From Candidatus Calditenuaceae archaeon (lineage in GTDB: Archaea; Thermoproteota; Nitrososphaeria_A; Caldarchaeales; Calditenuaceae): 24,000 bases of DNA. Below are positions 1-11,588 of the stretch, one piece after another. The first letter of the stretch is position 1. The number at the start of each line of letters is the position of its first letter. The notes beneath the pieces are model-generated. The model did no database searches, was not told the DNA's origin, and saw only the letters and a program-made list of their open reading frames with translations. The stretch is from the NCBI GenBank assembly GCA_025058055.1, contig JANXEU010000002.1, positions 23,851 to 47,850 of the forward strand, in the 5' to 3' direction. A program made the position numbers and the translations under genes.

Positions 1-265
1 GCATCGCTCTAAGTGCTAGCGCGTCAAGGCCAGCGTAGTTGAGGACGTAGCCAGACTTCCTACCCGCAGGAGACCAGACGAGTGAAGCATCGTGCAGTTC
101 GCTCAGCAACTTCGCCAAGTACTGCTCGGAGAGTTTCATCGCTCTGGAGACCGATTCTACTCGAGTGAGGGAACCTCTCATGGAATTGCGCTCGATAACC
201 CGGAGGACATTGAAGTGTCTGTCGGAGAGCTCTGATACGGCCCTCAGGATCCTAGCTAGACCCAA
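1..265 (-). CDS. RIO2-type serine kinase, N-terminal winged-helix part (partial, runs off window start)
   Basis: Absent from the supplied ORF track because there is no stop inside the window. Hand translation of the minus strand from 265 gives (L/M)GLARILRAVSELSDRHFNVLRVIERNSMRGSLTRVESVSRAMKLSEQYLAKLLSELHDASLVWSPAGRKSGYVLNYAGLDALALRAM, open to position 1. The GY.L.Y.GLDALAL segment matches the end of the Rio2 N-terminal wHTH as I recall it. There is an in-frame stop at 278-280. The likely start is TTG 265-263, overlapping the ileS 3' end by 14 nt; ATG at 181 or 139 would truncate the wHTH. Start is uncertain. Confidence 0.5.
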   Translation of the reverse strand, partial: MGLARILRAVSELSDRHFNVLRVIERNSMRGSLTRVESVSRAMKLSEQYLAKLLSELHDASLVWSPAGRKSGYVLNYAGLDALALRAM

Positions 266-3200
266 CTTTTTTCCTTCTCATAAGCCCAACAACAAGCTTA
301 ACGTCGTCGATCTGCCACTCTCCCACTCTCTCGAACTCCTCACCGGTCGGCGGTGAACTCATCAAGTCAAGCCTCGTCCTAGTCTCCTCCTCCACGTGTT
401 CGACAAGCGCCCTGAGCCCATCCAGCTTGAGGTGCTCTGAGACGTAAACTCCACAGTCCACCACCTCTGTCAGCTCGAGGTTCATCTCCTTCCTCATCAC
501 CTGCACCCTCCTGATCACCTCATTGGCGAAGGCCATCGACTTGAGAGTCTCGTCGGCCTTCAAGTCTACGTACACGGTCGCGAACCTTCCCTCTGAGGAC
601 TTGAACCAATCGGGAAGTCTCTCAACGACCTGAACGTGCTCCGCCTTTAACACGAAGACGGTGCTGTCTGGAAGACTGAGGACGTACTCGCCGTTGGAGT
701 TCAACGAGTCTATTACTTCTTGCGGCCTTGACGCGCGGAGGGCCGCAATCACGTCGTTCAGCCTTCTGCCCGCTGCAGGACCAAGCTCACTAAGCACGGG
801 CTCGAGTTCCCGCCTTGACTCCTCAAGAGACTCGCTGACGTTTAGCACTTCTACCTTCATGGCGTTGGTCATTCTGGCCAAGTAATCGGAGAGCCGGAGT
901 ATGGCGTCCCTAGCCCTGGGCGAGTTGGGTGATATGACGATCCTCGACACGGGCCACCTGAGCTTGTACCCGGCCTTCTGCCTAGCGTTGAGGGAGGAAG
1001 CGATGACGTCGTCAACCACCTCCATCGCGTCTTCCAGCTCCTGATCGACCTTTTCCTCTTCTACCTTAGGCCACTTCAGGAGGCAGACGCTTTCAGGCAT
1101 CGACTTGGTTCGTATGCGTTGGTAGAGGAACTCGGCGACATAGGGTGCGAATGTTGAGAGCATCACTAGGTACCTCATTATCACGTAGTACATAGCTGCG
1201 TAGGACGCGATCTTCTTCGGAGACCTGCTCTCTTCCCAGAACCTCCTCCTGACCGCCCTGACGTATCTCCTGCTCAGCTCGTCGGTCGCGAATCTCAGAA
1301 GGGCTCTCGCTGCATCCGTTAGCTCGTATCTCTCGACGGAGGCAGTCACAGACCGTATCAGGGAGTTCACCCTTGACACGATCCACCTGTCCTCTGGCTC
1401 GGCGTACCTCAGATACGCGTCGTAGCCCTCCCTCTCCGGGTCGTATCTGTCGAGGTCGAAGTACGTCTTCGCGAAGGAGACCACGTTCCAGAAGACGTTG
1501 AGGTTTGACTGTACCTGCTTGATCTCCTCTGGGTCGAAGTTCATCGACTCCCAGACCTGAGACTTGGTGAGCAGATAGAGGCGTAGGTTATCGACACCGA
1601 ACCTCTCGAATGACTCGTTGGCCCAGATTACGTTTCCCTTGCTCTTCGACATCTTCTTGCCCTCCTTGTCGAGCACGTGGCTCTGAGTGAGAACCGACTT
1701 GAAGGGCGACCTTCCGAAGAGGAGGGCTGATGTGAAGAGGAGCGTGTAGAACCAACCTCGCGTCTGATCGATGGCTTCCGTGATGAAGTCATACGGGAAG
1801 AGCCTGTTGAAGAGGTGAGGGCTCGAGAGGTAGTCGATGCTAGCGAAGTGCGCGACTCCTGAATCGAGCCAAGTGTCGAGCACAAAGGGTTCCCTCTTCA
1901 TCATGCCACCGCACTTCCCGCATCGGAAGACTACCACATCGATCCAAGGCCTGTGAAGTCTCAGCTCTTTTGGCAGCTCGATGGCCTCCCTTTCGGTCTC
2001 AGCTCTCGACCCTACTACCCTTCTGGAACCGCAAGACTCACAGGTCCATACGTTCAGAGGCGTCCCCCATATCTTGGTCCGAGAGATGCACCAGTCCTCT
2101 GCGTTCTCGAGCCACTCTCTGAACCGCGCTGACCCGGCCCACGCCGGAACCCACTTTATCCTGCCGTTCTCCTCTAGCATGAGCCTCTTTATCCTGTCGA
2201 CCCGAAGGAACCACTGCCTGCTCGCGAGGTAAACGAGGGGCGTTCCGCACCTCCAGCAGTGAGGGTAGTTGTGGACCACGACGCCCCTGTGCAGCAGAAG
2301 TCCCTTGCTGGAGAGGAGATCGATGATCTCGTTCGCGGCCTCCCTGTGATCCTTACCTGAGAAGCGCCCCACCTCCTCCGTGAAGAGACCGTTAGTCGCG
2401 ATGGGACAAAAGACAGGCAATCCGTACCTCTTACCCAGCTCGAAGTCTTCGGGACCGTGACCTGGCGCGATGTGTACCAACCCAGTCCCCTCCTCCATCG
2501 ACACGAAATCCGCTGAGACGATCGCGTGAGCCGGATGAGAGTGCTGCTCGTGGACCCTCACTTCCTCCATGAACGGATGTCTGTATCTAAGGCCCTCCAG
2601 CTCGGATCCCGGCAATCTCTTTACGATCTCGACGAGCTCAAGACCCGCGTTCGCCCTGACTTGCTCCAGTAACTTCTCCGCAACGATCAGGTTTCCGCGG
2701 CTGGTCCTGACCTCGACGTAACTCTCTTCCCCGCTCACGGCGATTGCTTCATTGGCTAACAGAGTCCACGGCGTCGTGGTCCAGATGACGGCGTAGGTCT
2801 CTGTCCTCTCAACGATGGGGAAGAGCACGTAGAGCGAGTAGTCCTCTACCTCCTCGTATCCCTGAGAGACTTCGTGTGAGGACAGGGGCGTCTCGCACCG
2901 GGGACAGAAGGGAACCACCTTGTAGCTGGCTACGAGGTCTCCATCGTCGTGAGCCTTCTTCAAAAGGTACCAGACGTGTTCCATGTAACGCTCGTTCCTA
3001 GTCTCGTAGGCCAAGTCGTAGTCGAGCCATAGACCTAACCTCTCAGAGTCACTCCTCCAATGGTGAATGTAGTGGTCGACCAGTTTGTTGGCCTCCTCGA
3101 CGAACCTCTCCATTCCGACGACCTCGACGTCCTTCTTCGACCTTATGCCGAGCAGCTTCTCGACCTCCAGTTCTGTCGGAAGGCCCTGACAGTCCCATCC

Positions 3201-3446
3201 TGCCCTCCTCCAGACGTGGAAACCCTGCATGGTCTTGAACCTGAGAACGACGTCCTTGCAGACCCTGCCTCTCACGTGGCCGACGTGCATGTACCCGTTG
3301 ACCGTAGGAGGTCCCTCTAGGAAAGAGAAGATGGGCCCTCCTTTGTTGTGCTCGACGAACTTCCTCGGGATGTCGTGCTCCCTCCAGAACCGAGCAACCT
3401 CCTCCTCGACCTTTGAGGGTTCGTATATCGGCGGAAGCGCGTACAT
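252..3446 (-). CDS. ileS: Isoleucyl-tRNA synthetase
   Basis: 1064-aa ORF with N-terminal FSFLEGPPTVNGYMHVGHVRGR (class I HIGH-type motif), WTTTPWTLLANEA (editing domain) and KMSKSKGNV. Several CxxC zinc-knuckle pairs are present (CPRCETP, CWRCGTP, CESCG, CGKCGG). Length is typical of archaeal IleRS. Confidence 0.95.
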   Translation of the reverse strand: MYALPPIYEPSKVEEEVARFWREHDIPRKFVEHNKGGPIFSFLEGPPTVNGYMHVGHVRGRVCKDVVLRFKTMQGFHVWRRAGWDCQGLPTELEVEKLLGIRSKKDVEVVGMERFVEEANKLVDHYIHHWRSDSERLGLWLDYDLAYETRNERYMEHVWYLLKKAHDDGDLVASYKVVPFCPRCETPLSSHEVSQGYEEVEDYSLYVLFPIVERTETYAVIWTTTPWTLLANEAIAVSGEESYVEVRTSRGNLIVAEKLLEQVRANAGLELVEIVKRLPGSELEGLRYRHPFMEEVRVHEQHSHPAHAIVSADFVSMEEGTGLVHIAPGHGPEDFELGKRYGLPVFCPIATNGLFTEEVGRFSGKDHREAANEIIDLLSSKGLLLHRGVVVHNYPHCWRCGTPLVYLASRQWFLRVDRIKRLMLEENGRIKWVPAWAGSARFREWLENAEDWCISRTKIWGTPLNVWTCESCGSRRVVGSRAETEREAIELPKELRLHRPWIDVVVFRCGKCGGMMKREPFVLDTWLDSGVAHFASIDYLSSPHLFNRLFPYDFITEAIDQTRGWFYTLLFTSALLFGRSPFKSVLTQSHVLDKEGKKMSKSKGNVIWANESFERFGVDNLRLYLLTKSQVWESMNFDPEEIKQVQSNLNVFWNVVSFAKTYFDLDRYDPEREGYDAYLRYAEPEDRWIVSRVNSLIRSVTASVERYELTDAARALLRFATDELSRRYVRAVRRRFWEESRSPKKIASYAAMYYVIMRYLVMLSTFAPYVAEFLYQRIRTKSMPESVCLLKWPKVEEEKVDQELEDAMEVVDDVIASSLNARQKAGYKLRWPVSRIVISPNSPRARDAILRLSDYLARMTNAMKVEVLNVSESLEESRRELEPVLSELGPAAGRRLNDVIAALRASRPQEVIDSLNSNGEYVLSLPDSTVFVLKAEHVQVVERLPDWFKSSEGRFATVYVDLKADETLKSMAFANEVIRRVQVMRKEMNLELTEVVDCGVYVSEHLKLDGLRALVEHVEEETRTRLDLMSSPPTGEEFERVGEWQIDDVKLVVGLMRRKKVGSS

Positions 3447-3486: not shown

Positions 3487-3738
3487 CCTTGACTTCGTGA
3501 AACGGCCAGCCCTCGTTTACGGCCCCTTTCATCAAACCTTCGAACACAAGTCCGATTGTTGCTCACTGTCTGGCCGTGTTATCACCCTATCACGCTCAGC
3601 CTCTCATCCAACGCGCTGACCTTCGTCTCTTTCAGGAATTAAGGCTAATAGGACGGCATGGGCTCGTTGTGACGAGAACGAACAGCGGGGGTAGCCAAGC
3701 CTGGTCAAAGGCGCAGGGTTGAGGGCCCTGTCCCGTAG

Positions 3739-3759
3739 GCCGAGTTGAAAAGGGCGGTC
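3739..3759 (+). other. Non-canonical tRNA intron (variable arm) with BHB-like motif
   Basis: Removal gives the variable arm UCCCGUAGGGGUUC and an 85-nt tRNA. A 4-bp helix C3733-U3736:G3754-G3757 is flanked by 3-nt bulges AGG (3737-3739) and UCG (3758-3760). Cutting after the 2nd nt of each bulge gives this 21-nt intron. Boundaries are ambiguous by 1 nt (G run). Confidence 0.55.
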
Positions 3760-3761
3760 GG

Positions 3762-3790
3762 GTTCGTGGGTTCGAATCCCACCCCCCGCA
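3762..3790 (+). repeat. Left copy of 29-bp direct repeat (putative attL core, tRNA-Leu 3' end)
   Basis: GTTCGTGGGTTCGAATCCCACCCCCCGCA is identical to 8141-8169. Flanking bases differ on both sides. Confidence 0.9.
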
Positions 3791-4051
3791 ATTGAAGAGA
3801 AGATGCTGTTTATTCGGTCATGTCGATTGGGCGGTGAATTTAAGGCGTGTTTCAGTGGAAATGGCTTTTGAGTGTCTCCTCGCTGCGAAGCGGCAGACGG
3901 ATTCCTAATGGGGTGAAGGATTTTTGATGCGATAAGGTGCTTTCGTTGTTGGAGGCGGTAAAGTCGTCTAGGTTGGAAGTTTAGCTGAGAAGCTAAAGGG
4001 GCTATTCATGGATGTTAAAATGTTATTTTGAAGACACCGTCTACGTCTAAC

Positions 4052-4165
4052 ATGACCAAGCGTGTAGTCATAGTAATAGTAGCCATCATAATTTCAATAG
4101 TTTTATCATCGTTGTACATCACACTTAATCCTACATGTGTCACTAGGACCGAGTACCTAATTTAG
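4052..4165 (+). CDS. Hypothetical 37-aa single-pass membrane peptide
   Basis: The ATG ORF reads MTKRVVIVIVAIIISIVLSSLYITLNPTCVTRTEYLI, with a hydrophobic core after a KR N-terminus. It is below the ORF-track size cutoff and there is no further support. Confidence 0.2.
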   Translation: MTKRVVIVIVAIIISIVLSSLYITLNPTCVTRTEYLI

Positions 4166-4176
4166 AGACATGTCGT

Positions 4177-4374
4177 TTGAGAACTGCTCTTTACGGCGTC
4201 TGTGTGATCACGTTCCATGTTCAGGGACTATCTATGGATTGGCAAGACCGTGTGGACTTGGATAAGCATAGGGAATTTGAAACCATCCTTAACAGTCTGG
4301 CGGAGGCGGGCGAGTTTGAGTTTATGACTATGAGTTCATACTACATGCGCCGGCCAGCAGCAGCCAATCCGTGA
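4177..4374 (+). CDS. Hypothetical small protein (ATG at 4234 more likely, 46 aa)
   Basis: ORF-track entry. The acidic segment DWQDRVDLDKHREFETILNSLAEAGEFEF resembles no family I recognise. Confidence 0.2.
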   Translation: MRTALYGVCVITFHVQGLSMDWQDRVDLDKHREFETILNSLAEAGEFEFMTMSSYYMRRPAAANP

Positions 4375-4425
4375 AAAGCGAGAGCTGGATAGGTTTAACA
4401 TCGGGTCGTAGGCTGATTGTTTAGG

Positions 4426-4974
4426 ATGTTGTCGGGTAAGCAGAGAGAATGGCTGCTTAAGCTTTTGAAGCATCGGAGCCGTTTAACATGTGTTGAATGG
4501 GCGGAGGTCGAGTCTGTTTTGAAGGAGAATTACGAGAAGCTGTCTTCTCTGTATGAGATGGAGAGGACGGGGGGCGAGCCTGCATTAGTTGCTTACGATG
4601 AGGGGGCTGGGCAGCTTGTTTTCATGGATTGTTCGCCCGAGAGCCCGGCTGGTCGTAGAGGGCTGTGCTACGACCGTGAGGCGATGGCTCTCCGCATCAA
4701 GAAAGGTGTGCATCCGAAGGGGAACGTTGTGGACATGGCGGCTGAGATGGGGGTTGAGGTTTTGACGGAGGAACAGTACAGATGGCTGCAGACCGTCGGC
4801 GAGTTTGACACACGCACGTCCAGCTGGCTGAATACACCCGACAATGTTAGAAAACATGGCGGCGCCATATTCGCTGAACGACGGTACAACACGGTTTTCG
4901 TATGTGCAAACAGTGCTCAATCTTTTTACAGCAGCCGAGGATTCCGAGCGGTTCTCAAAGTACCAATAAGCTAA
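4426..4974 (+). CDS. DUF4256-like protein
   Basis: The ORF track starts at TTG 4417; ATG at 4426 is more likely. Segments EMERTGGEP, CSPESPAGRRGLCYDREA, VDMAAEMGVEVLTEEQYRWLQ..GEFDT.TSSWL.TP...R.HGGA.F..RRY..VFV..N.A.S.Y..RGFR match my recollection of the mostly bacterial DUF4256 family. Needs an HMM check. Confidence 0.7.
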   Translation: MLSGKQREWLLKLLKHRSRLTCVEWAEVESVLKENYEKLSSLYEMERTGGEPALVAYDEGAGQLVFMDCSPESPAGRRGLCYDREAMALRIKKGVHPKGNVVDMAAEMGVEVLTEEQYRWLQTVGEFDTRTSSWLNTPDNVRKHGGAIFAERRYNTVFVCANSAQSFYSSRGFRAVLKVPIS

Positions 4975-5020
4975 TCGACAGCGGACAAAATCATTCTCAG
5001 ACAAGGCTGCGACCTTTACT

Positions 5021-5408
5021 TTAGAACCGCATGCAGGCCTTCACCGTTAGCCGCGCCTTGTTTAAAATCTCCGTGGCCCGATCTCTGCCAAAGGCCCTGC
5101 TGGCAGATATCCGCTCTCTTTCATAGCCGTAAAACGTTGGCCCACGAATACTTGCGGGTTCTGTCAGAAGCTTCCGCATCTCCATCAGCATTTCTCTCAA
5201 ATAGTCGGGCAGCATCAACCACCACCAGAACGTCTATGTCGCTTTCAGGCCCCGCCCTACTCGTGGCGACAGAGCCGAACACGCAGACAGACCTCAGCCT
5301 CTCGCCAAAACGTGTCTGCAGCAGCTGGAAGTGGTCGTCAACTAACTCAAGATACTCCCGTTGAATTTTCTCCAAGTAAACGGGCTCGCTCAGTGCCGAG
5401 TTGAACAA
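5021..5408 (-). pseudogene. Minimal nucleotidyltransferase (MNT / pol-beta superfamily), apparently frameshifted
   Basis: ORF 5121-5408 carries the GS-x10-DxD motif (FGSVATSRAGPESDIDVLVVVD, nt 5232-5276). Just after VVVD, around 5210-5218 in a GGTGGTGGTT run, the plausible continuation LPDYLREMLMEMRKLL... shifts into the overlapping ORF 5021-5218. A single joined product would be about 128 aa. Confidence 0.55.
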
Positions 5409-5426
5409 AATATGCTAACACGGCTA

Positions 5427-7061
5427 TTAATCACTTCTGTTCAGAATTTCTCTAAGTTTTCTTTTAACGTAGGCTGGGCTTGTTTCAGCGTATTCAGCGA
5501 TTTTAACCGGGTCTGTTTCACCCTTTTCCAGTAGATATTCGATGGCTTTGTCCACAGCTGTTTTACGCACGAGGTTTACGATTTTTCGAGGCGTTCTAAT
5601 TGCGTAGTTTTTCTCGAGCATGTCTAAGTTGTCGAGGATGGTGAATGATTTTTCCGCTTGAATTTCTTTCGGCAGGTTATGAATTTCCTCTATTATTTTC
5701 TTCCAGTCGACTCCGTGCCTTCGGATTGTTTCGGCTGCATCGCCTATGTCTCTTTCCCTTGACGTCAAAAGTTTTAGAAAAACAACGTCGTTGAGGTCTA
5801 GGAGCATCAGCTTAAGTTTACCGAGAGCGATCCCGAAAGTAGCTCGGTCCAGAATTTTTTGTGAAACCTTCACTCTCGCCACCTCTTCCGTGAAAACGTC
5901 TACCCTCATTAAAGTCGGGTGTATGAAGATGTTGCTCGGGTTTGCTCTAAGGTCTCCCTGCGTCCATTCTGCTGTTTTTCGAAACCCTGCAGCTGTTAGT
6001 GCCTTCTCAACTGTTTGGTAGTCTTCTCTGCTCCTGACCAAGATGTCTATGTCTTTCGTCGACGGCTTTATGCCCCTGATGACCATATTTATTCCACCTA
6101 AAAGGTAAACGGTGGTTTCACGTTCAACCTCTCTAGCCCATTTTTCTATGTTGGACATTATTTCGTCTGAGGGGAGTGATGGATGGGCCTTGATTCCGTA
6201 CTGTGAGCAGAGGTCTCTGAACTCGTTCCATGGAAGGAAAATGTCGGGGTTCGCTACTGGAAGACCTTCTACGTAGCTCTCTAAATCAAGCAGAACGCTA
6301 ATCACAGGTGTTTTCTTTGCTATCTTTCTTGCTCTTAGCAGGTCTATGTTTGTTCTGTTGGCCATGTAGAACACGGCGCACATGGTTCTTTCCTGCTTAG
6401 TCCTCGATGAGAGAAGTGCGTGGACCAATACTTCTTCACGGCCTATTCTGTCAGCGGGGTAAGCATAGTAGTCTCGGTCTGTGATGTACAGGACTCCGTA
6501 ATCTTTGAAACGGGAAAAAGCCGTCAACTCGCCTTTCGCAAGCATGCCTCGTGGAACTGATTTGATGATGAAACCATTCGAAAAGAGGACAACTGCTTCT
6601 GGTTCGACGGCTTCCTGCCATTTTATCATCCTGAGTAAAGTAATTAAAAGACGGATGGTTTCGTCTTCAACTACATGATATCGATGGTTGATTTTCTTCA
6701 CGACACCTACTTCCATGAGACCGATGAGTGTTTTCCATACTGTTCTTCTGGACAACTCTGTGTTTTGGATTAGTTCTTCAAGATTTTTTGGTGTGAAAAG
6801 AGCGTATAGAACGTCAGGTGCGGCTCCCTTCAGAATCTTCGTCACGTCATACTGCTGTGCTACTTGTTGGAGCACTTTACCAACCGGGTTCCCACTAATC
6901 ATGTATAAGTTGCCCGCTTTTTCCGCAAGACCCATTTTCATCAGTGATTTTACGACCAAGTAAGCGTGTGGTTTGCTTATACCAAGCCTTAACCCTAGCT
7001 GATCCACGGTCATCGGGCCCCCTAACAAAACCTTGACCGCTCTAGCTTCTGTGCTATTCAT
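5427..7061 (-). CDS. Multi-domain wHTH / nucleotidyltransferase-fold fusion protein (AbiE-like architecture, uncharacterised)
   Basis: 544 aa. Residues ~1-60 and ~85-135 are winged-helix-like (PMTVDQLGLRLGISKPHAYLVVKSLMKMGL; LEELIQNTELSRRTVWKTLIGLMEVGVV). Residues ~150-300 form a domain of unknown type. Residues ~315-445 form an NTase fold with LLGGINMVIRGIKPSTKDIDILV (nt 6039-6098), a later RVDVF acidic residue and LLTSRERDIGD. Residues ~490-544 form a terminal helical/HTH-like tail. Low GC. It ends 18 nt upstream of the MNT gene start. Confidence 0.8.
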   Translation of the reverse strand: MNSTEARAVKVLLGGPMTVDQLGLRLGISKPHAYLVVKSLMKMGLAEKAGNLYMISGNPVGKVLQQVAQQYDVTKILKGAAPDVLYALFTPKNLEELIQNTELSRRTVWKTLIGLMEVGVVKKINHRYHVVEDETIRLLITLLRMIKWQEAVEPEAVVLFSNGFIIKSVPRGMLAKGELTAFSRFKDYGVLYITDRDYYAYPADRIGREEVLVHALLSSRTKQERTMCAVFYMANRTNIDLLRARKIAKKTPVISVLLDLESYVEGLPVANPDIFLPWNEFRDLCSQYGIKAHPSLPSDEIMSNIEKWAREVERETTVYLLGGINMVIRGIKPSTKDIDILVRSREDYQTVEKALTAAGFRKTAEWTQGDLRANPSNIFIHPTLMRVDVFTEEVARVKVSQKILDRATFGIALGKLKLMLLDLNDVVFLKLLTSRERDIGDAAETIRRHGVDWKKIIEEIHNLPKEIQAEKSFTILDNLDMLEKNYAIRTPRKIVNLVRKTAVDKAIEYLLEKGETDPVKIAEYAETSPAYVKRKLREILNRSD

Positions 7062-7087
7062 CAGTCTAGTTTACTTAGATAATATGA

Positions 7088-7098
7088 CTTTATATAGT
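7088..7098 (-). promoter_or_regulatory. TATA box of the 544-aa gene
   Basis: The minus strand reads TATATAAAG about 27-37 nt upstream of the ATG at 7061. Confidence 0.4.
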
Positions 7099-7232
7099 TG
7101 TCTTATGTAAGTAAATTTTTTGGCACCGCTTCGGCTGCTAAGCTTGATAAAAGGCTGGCGCATATTTAGTCAAGGTTGAGGTTTTTAAGCCGGGTAGGAA
7201 AGCTTTGAAGCTTTACTTAGTTTATCTGTTGG

Positions 7233-7448
7233 TTGTTTTTGGCTCCGCTTGTCGTTTTTGGTTCCGTGGTTTCATGGGTTGTCTACGTTAATGCGCCGGA
7301 ACTTCTGCTGGTACTGTTGGCTGTCATTTTCGCTACTCTAACTGCTGTGGCGTTGCTCTACGTTTACTGGACCTTTAACTACGTCAAGTCGCTTGTATAC
7401 GAGCTGAACGATGAGGATGTTGTCATGCATGGTGTTCGTCGTCGATGA
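7233..7448 (+). pseudogene. Truncated two-TM membrane protein (possible bPH_2/DUF304-type N-terminus)
   Basis: 71 aa from a TTG start. Two hydrophobic helices are followed by YVKSLVYELNDEDVVMHGV, which resembles the beginning of a membrane-flanked bacterial PH domain. The ORF then stops abruptly. The family call is weak. Confidence 0.3.
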
Positions 7449-7503
7449 TTAACCACGACGGGATCACTGCGAATGTCTTTCTATGATGTCCGTGGATGCT
7501 GTG

Positions 7504-8061
7504 CTAGCAGTCGACGTAGGAGGCCGACTCGTTCGTGAACCTCTCGTCATGTGCGTCGACGATGATGCCGAAGGATGTGGAGCGGTCAGCTAGTAAGAAA
7601 GAGGTTTTGCCATCGGGTGTGATTGCGACGGCCCCTCTCCAAGCCTTGTCCATCAAAGCAACTTTGGCGCCTATTTTGACGGTTGCCCGTATCGCGTCTC
7701 CTGCGTTGCTTGGTGCGCCTACCGTCCATTCCTTACTGGAAGAGTTTGGCAAATGTTTTTCACACATCTCTAGGCTGTATTCGAAACCGCCGCTGGCCAG
7801 CAGAACACCTTCACGGGCCAGAACCCTGACAGGCGTTCCTTGACTGAGGACGACAGCCCTTACCACACGGCCCTTTTCCGTGACCAGCTGCCTAAGAGGC
7901 GACTCAAGCCAAACCTCGACACCCTTCTTCAGACAAGGATAAAGAAGCTGGCCTTTGAGCGAGCCTCCCATGGTCAACGGTACACGGCCTGTCAAGCCGT
8001 AGACGATGAGCTGCGCGCCGAGGCGTAGGAAAGCATTCATGCCTGTGGAGCTTCTGGCGAG
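7504..8061 (-). pseudogene. Internal fragment of an FAD-dependent dehydrogenase (3-ketosteroid dehydrogenase / fumarate reductase flavoprotein-like)
   Basis: Part of ORF 7504-8328. The segment VEVWLESPLRQLVTEKGRVVRAVV...VLLASGGFEYSLEMCEKHLP...EWTVGAPSNAGDAIRATVKIGA.VALMDKAW...IIVDAHDERFTNESASYVD matches the middle of KstD-like flavoproteins. It lacks the N-terminal GxGxxG FAD-binding region and the C-terminal third. Confidence 0.6.
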
Positions 8062-8070
8062 AAACTTTTT

Positions 8071-8169
8071 CCAAGCCTTGTTGGAGGCTGTGGAGGCGGC
8101 AGGCTTAAGATCCATAAGTGGGAGACCTGCTCCCGAAGGAGTTCGTGGGTTCGAATCCCACCCCCCGCA
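8071..8169 (+). pseudogene. tRNA-Leu(UAA)-like remnant lacking the 5' acceptor strand, with canonical-position intron
   Basis: D-arm-like CCAAGCCTTGTTGGAGGC (8071-8088) is followed by a 9-nt near-duplication. Anticodon stem is GCAGG (8099-8103)/CCTGC (8126-8130) with loop CTTAAG|A, anticodon TAA at 8106-8108. A 15-nt insert lies at 8110-8124 (position 37/38). Variable arm is TCCCGAAGGAGTTC (8131-8144). T arm and 3' acceptor are identical to tRNA-Leu(GAG). No GCGGGGG 5' strand is present (GAAACTTTTT instead). Confidence 0.5.
8141..8169 (+). repeat. Right copy of 29-bp direct repeat (putative attR core)
   Basis: Identical to 3762-3790. Confidence 0.9.
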
Positions 8170-8436
8170 CACCGACAGACGTTCTCGCAATTTTTCGGGA
8201 TCGGTGAGGAAGAACAGTGGTATGACGTTGAAGCTGCGGTGACTGCACCAAGGATTTGACGCGTTCCGTGCCCTTGAGGGCGCTTTCGGAAAGTAGTCAG
8301 TCTTACAGATCCCTGCTCTCATTTGCAAGCTTCTACCCTCTCTCCGAGAGGTTGGAGCGGACTCTTTAGGGGCGTTCGATCTCCCCGAACGTCAGAGTTA
8401 CACATTTACGGAACCGGATGGCTATGGTCATCAGAG

Positions 8437-9105
8437 ATGCTTGACTGCTTACTGCTAGACCTCGACGGGACCGTCGTTGAGTTCCCGCGCGAGTGGATCT
8501 ACAAGGCGAAAGAGGAGAGCATCAGGAGGCTCTCCGAACGCGGGCTCAGAATACCCGAGGAGATAGATTTGACCAGACCGCTCTCGGTCATACTTGAAGA
8601 AGTTCGTCGACTGAACGGTCCGTCGATAGAAGGAGAGGTGATGAGGATCATCGATGCGACCTTCAAGCGCTACGAGTGCGCGGCCGCGGAGCGCGCTGTC
8701 CCGAGGAAGTGGGTAAAGGAGGAGCTGAGCAAGTTGAACGGATCGCTCAAGGTAGCCATCGCGACCAACAATTCAAGAGATGCGGCCGTCAGAACTCTTG
8801 AGATCGCAGGGATATCGAACATGGTCAAGTGCGTCGTTTCTAGAGACGACGTGAACAGCATGAAACCCGACCCCCACATGCTTCTGAGGGCCATAAGACT
8901 CTGCAGCTCCACGATAAACGCCTCGCTGTACGTTGGGGACTCGATAGTCGACGTCTTAGCGGCCAGATCCATCGGAATACCGGTGATCCTAGTGCTCGGA
9001 GGGATAGCGAAGCCCGAGGACCTGAAGACCGTGAGACCTCACTTCGTTGCAGACGACTTCAGGGAAGTCTCCAGGCTGATCTCCGTACTAATGAACGGGC
9101 GGTGA
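8437..9105 (+). CDS. HAD-superfamily hydrolase (phosphoglycolate phosphatase-like subfamily IA)
   Basis: ATG at 8437 gives MLDCLLLDLDGTVVEF (motif I DxDGT). Also present are VAIATNNSR (motif II), K..PDP (motif III) and YVGDSIVDV (motif IV). The ORF-track start at 8323 adds a non-homologous extension. Confidence 0.8.
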   Translation: MLDCLLLDLDGTVVEFPREWIYKAKEESIRRLSERGLRIPEEIDLTRPLSVILEEVRRLNGPSIEGEVMRIIDATFKRYECAAAERAVPRKWVKEELSKLNGSLKVAIATNNSRDAAVRTLEIAGISNMVKCVVSRDDVNSMKPDPHMLLRAIRLCSSTINASLYVGDSIVDVLAARSIGIPVILVLGGIAKPEDLKTVRPHFVADDFREVSRLISVLMNGR

Positions 9106-9261
9106 CCGTTTAAGCACCTGTCTGTGCAAGACCTCGCCGACTTAATGCTGCTCCTCTCCAATCCCCTTGACACCTACATGCATGGTGGTGACGCATCAGG
9201 CGTTGGAAGTTTGAAGCCGCTTAGCGGCATGTCCATGACCGGTAGCTGGGACTTGTTGAGG

Positions 9262-9276
9262 TTTTATTCATAATAA
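9262..9276 (+). promoter_or_regulatory. TATA-like box upstream of the FAD oxidoreductase gene
   Basis: TTTTATTCATAATAA is centred about 32 nt upstream of the ATG at 9300. Confidence 0.3.
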
Positions 9277-9299
9277 CCACCGTTGCGTGATCGGAAACG

Positions 9300-10313
9300 A
9301 TGATGGTGACCGTCGCCGGAGGGGGAATCGCAGGGAGCTACCTCGCCAACCTCCTCTCCGGAGACCACGATGTCCACGTGTTGGAGAGGCAGAGGCCTGA
9401 CGGCTTCAGGGCGGTTTGCGCGTGGGGCACTAGCTATCACGAGATGAGGCGGTTGCTCGAGGTGGTAGACGTGGAGTTCGACGATTACGTCCTTCACGTG
9501 GGTAAGAAGATGATCATAGACCTCGGCCAAGACACAGTCGATGTTCCTCTGATGGGGCTCTGCACTTTCGATAAGAGGAAGTTGATTCTGGACCTGCACA
9601 GACGCATCAAGGTGTTCTACGGAGTAGAGGTGAAGAGGTCCGAGGACCTGAGGGGAGATCTTGTGATCGATGCGACTGGTTTCCACAGGGTACTGCTCCC
9701 GAGGCTTGCGAGGGACTACTATATTCCGACGCTCGAGTACCTAGTGAAGTACAGAGAACCACCGATCGATGACTTCTACGTGAAGCCAATAAAGCCCCTG
9801 TCCGGATACTTCTGGTACTTCCCTCTGGGAAACGGGTTGGCACACGTTGGCGCGGGCGACTTCTATAAACGTCACATGCAGGTACTCGACGAGTTCGTCT
9901 CGAGACACGGCGGCGAGGTCCTTAGCAGAATCGGTAGACCGGTGAGGATAACACCGCCTCACATGACCAAACCATTCAACGACGGATCCGTCTTTGGTGT
10001 TGGTGAGAGCATCGGCGCTGTGTACCCTGTGTTAGGGGAAGGGATCATCCCGGGCATGCAGTCCGCGGAGATCTTCTACAGGCTACTGAGCAGTTCAAGG
10101 CTTCACGATTACGAAAGGGAACTTATGGACTTCTTCAGGCCCTACTATTTGGCGTTTCAGTTCATCAGGAAGAAGATCCGGAGAGAGTACAGAACGATAC
10201 CCGACGCTAAACTACTCTTAGACGTCTTCATTCACATGAAGCGAAACGAGCAAAGGTACGGCATGAAGATCAGGTTGAGAGACTGGCTGAAGGTCGTCAG
10301 GACTTACGGTTGA
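9300..10313 (+). CDS. NAD(P)/FAD-dependent oxidoreductase, geranylgeranyl-reductase-like
   Basis: 337 aa. The N-terminal dinucleotide fold is VTVAGGGIAGSYLANLL...VHVLER, with VIDATG downstream. Size and layout resemble the GGR/FixC family. Specific substrate is unknown. Confidence 0.65.
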   Translation: MMVTVAGGGIAGSYLANLLSGDHDVHVLERQRPDGFRAVCAWGTSYHEMRRLLEVVDVEFDDYVLHVGKKMIIDLGQDTVDVPLMGLCTFDKRKLILDLHRRIKVFYGVEVKRSEDLRGDLVIDATGFHRVLLPRLARDYYIPTLEYLVKYREPPIDDFYVKPIKPLSGYFWYFPLGNGLAHVGAGDFYKRHMQVLDEFVSRHGGEVLSRIGRPVRITPPHMTKPFNDGSVFGVGESIGAVYPVLGEGIIPGMQSAEIFYRLLSSSRLHDYERELMDFFRPYYLAFQFIRKKIRREYRTIPDAKLLLDVFIHMKRNEQRYGMKIRLRDWLKVVRTYG

Positions 10314-10434
10314 GTTCGATAGAACGTGCCACATCTTCCTGAACCTCTCCTGAAGTGAGCGTGCTTGAACGGGCCTGTACCGCCTTACGTCTTGGAGCTG
10401 TAACGTTGAAAAACGGCTTCTAGATCCCACTGAG

Positions 10435-10509
10435 GGGCCCGTGGCCTAGCATGGATAGGGCGCCGGCCTGCGGAGCCGGAGGTCCCGGGTTCGAGTCCCG
10501 GCGGGCCCG
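10435..10509 (+). tRNA. tRNA-Arg(GCG)
   Basis: Acceptor GGGCCCG (10435-10441)/CGGGCCC (10502-10508), discriminator G. Anticodon stem CCGGC/GCCGG with loop CTGCGGA, anticodon GCG at 10470-10472. T arm CCGGG-TTCGAGT-CCCGG. No intron. Confidence 0.9.
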
Positions 10510-10556: not shown

Positions 10557-11588
10557 TTATTCCGTCAGTTCTATGACCACACGATCTATGCACAATTTCG
10601 CTACGTCGACGAAGTCCTCTGACCTCGACAAAGGCGCTAGTATCAGGTATCTGGCTCCTGCGTTAACGTATTCCTGCAGCATGTCCACGCAATCCCTCGG
10701 CGTCCCGATGATCGCAACCCTCCTTTCGACCAGCTCTTCCAGCTTCATGTCTAACTTCTGGGCCGACAGGAAGACCCTTTCACCGATTTCCCTGTCGAGG
10801 GGGACGTTCTTCCAGACGTTGAACTCCGGTACCTCGGTGGTCAGGTACAACACCTTCGCTGGAAGAAGGAACTTCCTTTCGAGAGCTGTGCGGTCGATGT
10901 CCACGCCGACGTACACGAAGGCTGCCGGAACGATGTTCTCCGGATCTCTACCCACCTCTGACGCCACCTGACGGATCGACCGGAGCCTTCGTTCGTAATC
11001 GCCTGGCTCACCAACGATCGGGATCCAACCGTCACCCAATTCACCGACTAGCCTCAAGGATCTAGGTGAGTTCGCACCGATCCATATCGGAGGATGCGGT
11101 CTCTGGACCGGCTTCAGGTCCAGTATCGCGTTCGTGAACTTAACGAATTCGCCGTTGTAGTCCACCCGATCGAGGGTCCACAACAACTTGATCGCCTGTA
11201 CGACCTCTGTCATCCTCGAGACGGGACGGTCCCATTCGACGTGGAAAGGCGTTAGGTTCATCGCCTCACCAGCACCCATCCCGAGGACGGCCCTACCCTG
11301 CGACAGAACGTCGACGGTAGCCACGATCTGTGCCAGAGTCTCTGGATGTCTTCTGTGGGGATCCGAGACCGAGGTGCCTAGCCTGATCCTCTGTGTCTTG
11401 ACCGCCAGCGCCGCGAGCATTGTCCAAGCGTCCACGGCCGCGAACCTCCTGATACCGAAGGCCACCACGTGATCCGCTAGCCAGAGGCCGTCTAATCCAG
11501 ACGACTCACAGAGCTCCGCCGCCCTGAATATCACTTCAGGTGGGTAAAGGTTCGGGGCGAGACCGATCTTCACCAAGTCACACTTCAC
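10557..11588 (-). CDS. LLM-class (luciferase-like) flavin/F420-dependent oxidoreductase
   Basis: 343 aa. Contains GLDGLWLADHV, a TIM-barrel LLM-type pattern (LGTSV, LGMGAGE, PPIWIGANSPR) and a C-terminal GTP..C...L.EY..AG segment. Confidence 0.8.
   Translation of the reverse strand: MKCDLVKIGLAPNLYPPEVIFRAAELCESSGLDGLWLADHVVAFGIRRFAAVDAWTMLAALAVKTQRIRLGTSVSDPHRRHPETLAQIVATVDVLSQGRAVLGMGAGEAMNLTPFHVEWDRPVSRMTEVVQAIKLLWTLDRVDYNGEFVKFTNAILDLKPVQRPHPPIWIGANSPRSLRLVGELGDGWIPIVGEPGDYERRLRSIRQVASEVGRDPENIVPAAFVYVGVDIDRTALERKFLLPAKVLYLTTEVPEFNVWKNVPLDREIGERVFLSAQKLDMKLEELVERRVAIIGTPRDCVDMLQEYVNAGARYLILAPLSRSEDFVDVAKLCIDRVVIELTE

Follow-up and report, generated by a model that had tools for sequence, protein, structure and literature searches.

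Candidatus Calditenuaceae archaeon (Archaea; Thermoproteota; Nitrososphaeria_A; Caldarchaeales; Calditenuaceae; assembly GCA_025058055.1) carries a 4.4-kb interval of unusual composition between an intact tRNA-Leu(GAG) gene and a second copy of the last 29 nucleotides (nt) of that gene. The interval was originally predicted to be a decayed integrated element. Our analysis of the 24,000-nt stretch that contains it (contig JANXEU010000002.1, positions 23,851-47,850 of the forward strand; referred to here as the window) suggests a different origin. Sequence comparison indicates that the interval is bounded by two paralogous tRNA-Leu genes and not by a target-site duplication. We favor, with a probability of approximately 0.58, the reading that it is a worn-down accessory locus, linked to tRNA-Leu(UAA) in this lineage, which was placed at its present site by recombination between tRNA-Leu paralogues. 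The comparison was made with loci from metagenome-assembled genomes (MAGs) of relatives, namely L001-L003 (found via isoleucyl-tRNA synthetase, IleRS), L149, L151, L152 (from another Caldarchaeum MAG, reached through a homologue of a 544-aa protein of the interval), L153, and L154 (reached through a homologue of the DUF4256 gene of the interval). L001 and L154 are contigs of one Calditenuaceae MAG (SKYB46), the closest relative genome. An independent Logan contig from SRR15826900 (L068) was also compared.

We found that the 29-nt repeat, GTTCGTGGGTTCGAATCCCACCCCCCGCA, occurs exactly twice in the window, at 3762-3790 and 8141-8169, both on the forward strand, so the perfect direct repeat of a tRNA-Leu 3' end in the original prediction is exact. 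In 100 shuffles it never appeared, even with up to 3 mismatches tolerated. The left copy comprises the end of the variable arm (V arm), the T arm, the 3' acceptor strand, and the discriminator of tRNA-Leu(GAG). The right copy had been taken for an attachment (att) site duplication of the same gene end, a view that did not survive closer alignment. The tRNA-like similarity at the right end reaches 68 nt beyond the repeat, 5'-ward to 8073, which had been missed, and the repeat forms the last 29 nt of a 5'-truncated, 97-nt pseudogene of tRNA-Leu(UAA) with two introns (8073-8169, forward strand), as delimited by alignment to L152 and L154. This pseudo-tRNA comprises intron 1 (8073-8095), exon 2 (8096-8109), intron 2 (8110-8124), and exon 3 (8125-8169); the anticodon TAA is found at 8106-8108, and the 5' exon is lost. 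The UAA anticodon together with both introns rules out a bare att core or a duplicated end of tRNA-Leu(GAG). Since the right end has the layout of tRNA-Leu(UAA), the 29-nt repeat represents the T arm and acceptor strand common to Leu isoacceptors. The terminal 29-31 nt are identical in the tRNA-Leu(GAG) and tRNA-Leu(UAA) genes of this lineage, as seen in L152.

As it stands, the pseudo-tRNA at 8073-8169 is matched as a tRNA by neither ARAGORN nor Rfam (E <= 1); when its exons are joined to a 5' exon, ARAGORN calls tRNA-Leu(UAA). Window positions 8085-8172 are 88.6% identical over 88 nt to the tRNA-Leu(UAA) gene of L152, and positions 8073-8164 are 79.8% identical over 94 nt to a pseudo-tRNA-Leu(UAA) in L154, with which the window copy has the same intron-1 variant, AAGCCTTGTTGGAGGCT(G/T)TGGAG. 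Because the L154 pseudo-tRNA shows the whole of intron 1, the start of the remnant was set at 8073 and not at 8085. The 59 exon nt of the window pseudo-tRNA contain 1 difference from the tRNA-Leu(UAA) gene of L152 while the introns have diverged, which is what one would expect of a gene that kept its function until not long ago.

The tRNA-Leu(UAA) genes of the relatives are themselves easily overlooked. The gene of L152 (3277-3398) is 122 nt long, has its first 26 and last 31 nt in common with the window tRNA-Leu(GAG), and gives a perfect 85-nt tRNA-Leu(UAA) once a 23-nt intron in the D arm and a 14-nt intron at 37/38 are removed. The functional tRNA-Leu(UAA) gene of L154 (8272-8442) is likewise recognized only after in silico splicing. 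Since these multi-intron genes escape both ARAGORN and the Rfam tRNA model, the annotations of these two MAGs probably lack tRNA-Leu(UAA). Multiple introns have also been reported for the tRNA-Leu(UAA) gene of Caldiarchaeum subterraneum, whose genome has 45 nonredundant tRNA genes (PMC3293823). In the L154 gene we also observed a 62-nt 'intron' at 37/38 that contains two dead copies of the 3' strand of the anticodon stem and the start of the V arm (ACCTGCTCCCG..., CTGCTCCCGAAGGA); they resemble nested scars left by previous rounds of recombination.

The left boundary also carries a sign of tRNA-Leu(UAA). The intact tRNA-Leu(GAG) gene (3685-3790, forward strand, 106 nt) scores 52.7 bits with the Rfam tRNA model and is called by ARAGORN at 3685-3785. 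Alignment shows that it consists of the 85-nt tRNA of the relatives plus a 21-nt insert, GCCGAGTTGAAAAGGGCGGTC, and is otherwise identical to the genes of L001-L003. The insert (3739-3759, forward strand, boundaries ambiguous by 1 nt) lies directly before the repeat and was not mentioned in the original prediction; its removal in silico leaves an 85-nt tRNA-Leu(GAG) according to ARAGORN. It is missing from tRNA-Leu(GAG) in all three of the relatives L001-L003 and is identical at 18 of 22 positions to the V-arm intron of the functional tRNA-Leu(UAA) gene of L154. When folded, the insert places a 3-bp helix between two 3-nt bulges atop the V-arm stem, and in this predicted form it resembles an archaeal bulge-helix-bulge intron. 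Overall, the last third of the window tRNA-Leu(GAG), from the V-arm intron on, looks like the tRNA-Leu(UAA) gene that heads the same locus in L154.

We found that the DNA on the left of tRNA-Leu(GAG) is shared with relatives and that the DNA on the right is not. The IleRS gene (252-3446, reverse strand) is 87% identical to that of L001 and 83% identical to those of L002 and L003, which come from Caldarchaeales MAGs. In all three loci tRNA-Leu(GAG) adjoins IleRS, its 3' end is present as a single copy, and the low-GC (guanine plus cytosine) block is absent. Downstream of tRNA-Leu(GAG), L001 and L003 share a GlcF-like gene followed by a NagD-type HAD gene and PPDK, none of which is present in the 24-kb window. 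Because these flanking genes are absent from the window, tRNA-Leu(GAG) no longer has its ancestral flank beyond 8170, and what changed at this gene is a flank swap and not a simple insertion. The original prediction had anticipated an empty site in which tRNA-Leu(GAG) is followed directly by the 8170+ flank; such a site was not found among the IleRS-bearing relatives, and the flank of L001 and L003 is that from the GlcF-like gene to PPDK. A metagenome scan with the HAD protein of the right flank returned nothing above 34% identity.

L068 covers this right flank. Its positions 1-2322 are identical to window positions 8141-10462; its first base is that of the right repeat, and its last lies within tRNA-Arg(GCG). 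Since both of its ends lie in tRNAs, assembly graphs evidently break at tRNA sequence common to several genes or organisms. The start of L068 could point to an empty-site variant, but a co-occurring L003-like relative with the same tRNA end would break the graph identically, and we did not take it as evidence. Breaks of this kind may also conceal variants of the locus within one population, for which the contig end at 8141 is at most a hint.

In the relatives, genes of the interval are found next to tRNA-Leu(UAA). L152 has the order L37e, tRNA-Leu(UAA), a winged helix-turn-helix (wHTH)-nucleotidyltransferase gene, and DUF4256. In L154, tRNA-Leu(UAA) (8272-8442) is followed by two genes, DUF4256, a HEPN remnant, a full-length but decayed pseudo-tRNA-Leu(UAA) (approximately 10680-10806), and an M24 peptidase gene. 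Since the L154 pseudo-tRNA matches that of the window, including the intron-1 variant, the second tRNA-Leu(UAA) copy behind DUF4256 predates the split of the two genomes. Two tRNA-Leu genes around conserved genes had been named in the original prediction as the arrangement that would speak against an integrated element, and this is largely what L154 has, with tRNA-Leu(UAA) and its pseudogene on either side of DUF4256.

The order of genes further into the interval is also found elsewhere. L153 contains DUF4256, HEPN, MNT, bPH_2, a 554-aa FAD_binding_2 protein gene, a gene of 177-178 aa, a 911-aa gene, a faint match to signal peptidase S26, and further genes. This order recurs in L149, where a wHTH-nucleotidyltransferase gene lies between MNT and bPH_2 and a PIN pair after the FAD gene. 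The window DNA aligns at 80-95% to L149 and at 69-87% to L153. Part of the interval (DUF4256, HEPN-MNT, bPH_2, and the FAD gene) is a syntenic block in L149 and L153, where it runs into further genes.

Only two genes of the interval are intact, DUF4256 (4417-4974, forward strand; Pfam E = 5e-70; likely ATG start at 4426) and the wHTH-nucleotidyltransferase gene (5427-7061, reverse strand), while MNT, HEPN, bPH_2, and FAD_binding_2 are truncated. The DUF4256-like gene and the two genes of nucleotidyltransferase fold (NTP_transf_2 and DUF6036) reported earlier are thus present, and the count of truncated genes rises from two to four. HEPN is reduced to a C-terminal remnant of 65 aa (5021-5218, reverse strand) of a toxin, with 79% amino acid identity to the C-terminal portion of the HEPN gene of L153 (798-1199) and without a Pfam match of its own; a frameshifted MNT tail was considered for this open reading frame (ORF) and ruled out, since it aligns as a HEPN C-terminus. 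MNT is reduced to an N-terminal nucleotidyltransferase remnant (5121-5408, reverse strand; NTP_transf_2, E = 7e-9) with weak MntA and PDC-S09 matches. By blastn, window positions 5198-5385 correspond to L153 1535-1724 and window positions 4392-5213 to L153 180-999, which places a deletion of approximately 536 bp (L153 999-1535) within the pair and removes the HEPN N-terminus and the MNT C-terminus. HEPN and MNT pairs are type VII toxin-antitoxin systems; in L153 the pair is complete, with both genes intact and adjacent on the same strand, and it is dead in the window because this one deletion truncates both genes.

Two further deletions account for the remaining truncations. An ORF at 7233-7448 (forward strand), earlier listed as a small membrane ORF, turned out to be the N-terminal stump (71 aa) of a bPH_2 membrane protein, with 82% amino acid identity to the 193-aa bPH_2 protein of L149. 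A homology block with L149 (window 5187-7436) stops at L149 position 6786. The adjoining gene is an internal fragment of a KstD-like FAD_binding_2 gene (7431-8084, reverse strand) that covers codons approximately 165-382 of 554 and has lost both ends. The fragment is 88% identical in nucleotides to L149 5924-5271, aligns by BLASTP to the full-length L149 protein, matches Pfam profile positions 137-294 of 414, and is matched by NCBIfam KstD-like models. L149 5924-6786 is therefore deleted in the window, and with it the FAD C-terminus and most of bPH_2. The third deletion extends from FAD codon approximately 165 through to intron 1 of the second tRNA. At this point a 12-nt sequence, AAGCCTTGTTGG (8073-8084), is part of both the FAD gene and tRNA intron 1; the L149 FAD gene reads AAGCCTCGTTGG and intron 1 of the L154 pseudo-tRNA reads AAGCCTTGTTGG. 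These 12 nt are a microhomology at which the deletion was joined. At the other two deletions, the flanking blastn blocks overlap by 6 nt (7431-7436) and 16 nt (5198-5213), which suggests short-homology joins there too.

Sliding-window GC and tetranucleotide analyses upheld the low-GC island of the original prediction. The GC content of 3791-8084 is 48.1%, compared to a mean of 58.9% (standard deviation 0.8) for equally long windows outside the interval within the 24 kb (z = -13.7). Tetranucleotide distance is 0.45-0.56 inside the interval and 0.16-0.26 elsewhere, approximately twice that of any other 2-kb window. The drop in GC is patchy: it is deepest in a spacer behind tRNA-Leu(GAG) (45%), the wHTH-nucleotidyltransferase gene (45%), and 7062-7503 (44%), and values near those of the host are found in DUF4256 (52.5%), the MNT remnant (54%), and the FAD fragment (55.6%).

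From the anatomy, homologies, and synteny breaks described above, we infer the following order of events and mechanism. The ancestor would have carried tRNA-Leu(UAA), DUF4256, HEPN-MNT, bPH_2, the FAD gene, and tRNA-Leu(UAA) once more, as a second copy. The first tRNA-Leu(UAA) copy would then have recombined with tRNA-Leu(GAG) at a point 3' of the anticodon, which would have exchanged their downstream flanks and put the locus, together with the V-arm intron, behind IleRS and tRNA-Leu(GAG). The wHTH-nucleotidyltransferase gene may then have been gained, followed by three deletions that would have removed half of HEPN-MNT, the C-termini of bPH_2 and FAD, and the stretch from the FAD N-terminus to intron 1 of the second tRNA, the last of them joined at the 12-nt microhomology. 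A flank exchange between Leu isoacceptor genes is the simplest account because the window tRNA-Leu(GAG) has a UAA-type intron, its flank is not ancestral, and DUF4256 and the pseudo-tRNA follow tRNA-Leu(UAA) in L154. A further proposal, that the window preserves a seldom recorded event in which the two isoacceptor genes recombined 3' of the anticodon and swapped flanks and moved the V-arm intron while keeping their decoding identities, without a visible mobile element, is one that we put forward tentatively, at somewhat less than even odds.

Several observations weigh against recombination between tRNA-Leu paralogues. Its reciprocal product, tRNA-Leu(UAA) followed by the genes from GlcF-like to PPDK, was not seen in the 24 kb of the genome covered. 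The right flank has the HAD and geranylgeranyl-reductase-like genes in the window and an M24 peptidase gene in L154, and since these flanks differ, at least one more rearrangement is needed. An exchange point upstream of the V-arm intron would rest on approximately 8 shared nt (TCCCGTAG), and gene conversion or intron mobility could mimic the transfer of this intron. Furthermore, the exons of the window pseudo-tRNA are near perfect while those of L154 are decayed, which is unexpected for an old shared pseudogene unless the window copy was functional until recently or was homogenized. Low GC, toxin-antitoxin modules, and direct repeats derived from tRNA also fit the relic of an integrated element.

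Such a relic, which we regard as unlikely though deserving of serious weight, would descend from a plasmid or virus whose attP was a 3' fragment of tRNA-Leu(UAA) (at least 97 nt, with introns) and which integrated into tRNA-Leu(GAG) via the shared 29-31 nt and later lost its integrase and replication genes. Of the features by which tRNA-integrated elements are recognized, the locus has a direct repeat of which one copy lies in and completes an intact tRNA, a composition strongly unlike that of the host, cargo of the toxin-antitoxin type common in islands, and absence of the interval beside tRNA-Leu(GAG) in L001-L003. If the crossover took place close to the 3' end, the greater part of the attP fragment would remain at attR, as observed. 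Archaeal attP sites that are tRNA fragments of more than 30 bp have been described or proposed, as have intron-bearing attP sites, the latter for a Caldiarchaeum population (PMC3293823; PMC8371274), and crenarchaeal att sites reach 69 bp (PMC6563490). The absence of an integrase, already noted from the ORFs in the original prediction, stands against this. Searches with Pfam in all six frames of 3700-8265 (E <= 1) gave no integrase, recombinase, or transposase, even in fragments, and none was found in the interval by PHROGs, PADLOC, or NCBIfam or among the ten further ORFs of the window, all of which are housekeeping genes. An SSV-type split integrase was considered for a 274-aa ORF (7504-8328, reverse strand) and rejected: this ORF is the FAD frame, open by chance, and its FAD homology ends at 8084. 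We likewise found no element hallmark genes in the interval and no relative in viral, phage, or plasmid collections, and viral scans gave no match to the 29-mer, to a 33-mer diagnostic of the right copy, or to the 544-aa protein. No empty site was found, and the distal repeat is more than a displaced part of the target tRNA. The flank past the putative attR differs from that common to L001 and L003, the homologous full-length pseudo-tRNA behind DUF4256 in L154 makes the second copy older than this genome, and part of the cargo is syntenic in L149 and L153, where it runs into further genes, among them one for a 911-aa protein and a faint S26 match. Thus the interval is accessory, compositionally deviant, decayed, and absent beside tRNA-Leu(GAG) in L001-L003, as originally proposed, while its right end is a tRNA-Leu(UAA) pseudogene and its flank is not ancestral. 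Nothing in the interval can move now.

A different route to the same order would be a 4.4-kb circle looped out between the AAGCCTTGTTGG copies of tRNA-Leu(UAA) intron 1 and the FAD gene, at a native or donor locus with tRNA-Leu(UAA) ahead of DUF4256 to FAD; the circle would have re-entered tRNA-Leu(GAG) by one homologous crossover within the common 3' end. These two events reproduce the observed order exactly, the 12-nt overlap at 8073-8084 is real, and DUF4256 follows tRNA-Leu(UAA) in both L152 and L154. We nevertheless consider this route very unlikely: a simple deletion fits better with the L154 pseudo-tRNA, which lies downstream of DUF4256 and has the same intron-1 variant; the remnant is without the V-arm intron that is present in the upstream tRNA-Leu(UAA) of L154; a 29-nt crossover is short; and the 8170+ flank would still not be the ancestral flank of tRNA-Leu(GAG). 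The least probable explanation, in our estimation, is an assembly chimera, in which this contig of a metagenome bin was mis-joined, at one or both tRNA-Leu junctions, through k-mers that recur in the tRNA-Leu genes of a single co-occurring relative or of several. Relatives do have the 29-31 nt in common in their tRNA-Leu genes, and L068, which begins exactly at 8141 and ends in tRNA-Arg, shows that graphs do break there. However, neither the 29-31 nt nor the 8 nt ahead of the V-arm intron reach the k-mer length that common assemblers use in their final rounds. L068 confirms that the repeat is joined to the 8170+ flank, L154 independently contains a pseudo-tRNA behind DUF4256, and the junction of the FAD gene and the tRNA bears a biological signature in its 12-nt microhomology.

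The disrupted tRNA-Thr(GGU) locus of C. subterraneum (Sugahara et al. 2012, PMC3293823), in the same archaeal group, has a tRNA fragment in direct orientation within a few kb of an intact tRNA that contains introns, one intron more in this intact copy than in other genomes, and scattered synteny around the fragment, as does the window locus, and was explained by tRNA-gene recombination. More generally, tRNA fragments and intron gain in C. subterraneum have been ascribed to recombination (PMC3293823). The two loci differ in that the fragment derives from the 5' part of the same tRNA in C. subterraneum and from the 3' part of another isoacceptor here, in that a recombinase gene lies in the 1.8-kb insert there and none is found here, and in that the intervening DNA here is partly a syntenic block of relatives (PMC3293823).

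Integrated elements provide the other set of comparisons. In pNOB8- and SSV-type elements of Crenarchaeota and Thermococcales (PMC8371274), the tRNA 3' end is directly repeated and one copy completes a working tRNA, as here, and 29 nt is within the crenarchaeal att range of 29-69 bp (PMC6563490). Unlike the pNOB8 type, the window has no integrase beside the tRNA, and unlike the SSV type it has no int(N) and int(C) halves over the repeats; in contrast to both, the right copy continues for a further 68 nt into a gene whose anticodon is a different one, and the empty site was not found. Cryptic integrated elements of Thaumarchaeota (Krupovic et al. 2019, PMC6563490) are similar in being small (2.6-98 kb), without signature genes, and often at tRNA genes. 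They are, however, defined by an integrase and their att sites are mostly < 26 bp (PMC6563490), whereas no integrase is found here. The integrase of pTN3 from Thermococcus nautili, an element that targets tRNA-Leu, carries out recombination with the outcome of homologous exchange and causes rearrangements with breakpoints in short identical segments (Cossu et al. 2017, summarized in PMC8371274), which is alike in kind; those segments are >= 104 bp (PMC8371274) compared to 8-31 nt here, and no such integrase is seen in the window.

The locus adds to the scars of tRNA-gene recombination known from the Caldiarchaeum lineage. It is a second, independent case there in which tRNA fragments, nested scars, and gain of an intron go together with recombination at tRNA genes, here between isoacceptors. 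Automated island finders take a repeated tRNA 3' end together with low GC as proof of an integrated element. Because paralogous tRNA genes that share their ends give the same signature, for such calls in intron-rich archaea the repeat should first be extended and checked against the other isoacceptors. If the two isoacceptor genes did recombine and move the V-arm intron, the locus would show that an intron can pass naturally from one tRNA paralogue to another through gene recombination, and paralogous tRNA genes would be points of chromosome rearrangement in Caldarchaeales.

Among the remaining features, the spacer directly behind tRNA-Leu(GAG) (3791-4416, 626 bp, 45% GC) contains small unsupported ORFs (4028-4165 and 4177-4374) and has no homologue in any fetched locus by blastn or tblastx. 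The DUF4256 protein is 94%, 88%, and 75% identical to Caldarchaeales homologues and 55-62% identical to bacterial homologues; no solved structural relative was found for it, nor any mention in the searched literature. To the right of the pseudo-tRNA, the HAD hydrolase and geranylgeranyl-reductase-like genes (8437-10313) have no close relative in the fetched relatives or the metagenome scan, and they may themselves be accessory.

The 544-aa protein is the product of the main low-GC gene of the interval, a gene that has low GC in L149 too. It contains two TrmB-like winged helices, an HVO_2833_C-like middle domain, and a DUF6036 nucleotidyltransferase domain. Among 5.8 billion proteins only seven relatives were found, namely a 100% identical NCBI MAG protein (P0001) and six others, and a GG...DxD motif is invariant. 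The AlphaFold2 (AF2) model has a pLDDT of 89.9. By Foldseek, the solved folds nearest to its nucleotidyltransferase domain, both weak matches, are the minimal nucleotidyltransferase TM1012 (E = 0.006) and the toxin MenT1 (E = 0.019; target-normalized TM-score 0.55), and PADLOC matches are confined to the winged-helix part. A regulator and a nucleotidyltransferase in one chain that may work in the manner of AbiE or MenT systems is put forward only as a lead. The gene occupies varying positions, at 5427-7061 (reverse strand) in the window, 3515-5137 in L152, and 7166-8801 in L149, where it is split into two ORFs, and it is absent from L153 and L154. Because its position shifts in L152 and it is absent from the latter two loci, it behaves as a separately acquired gene. 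It is a possible one-chain toxin-antitoxin or defense gene. The most distant homologue of the protein (33%) is found in L151 (7250-8425; 10001-11683), 1.6 kb from a large-terminase gene, in a neighborhood that is possibly the remnant of a provirus.

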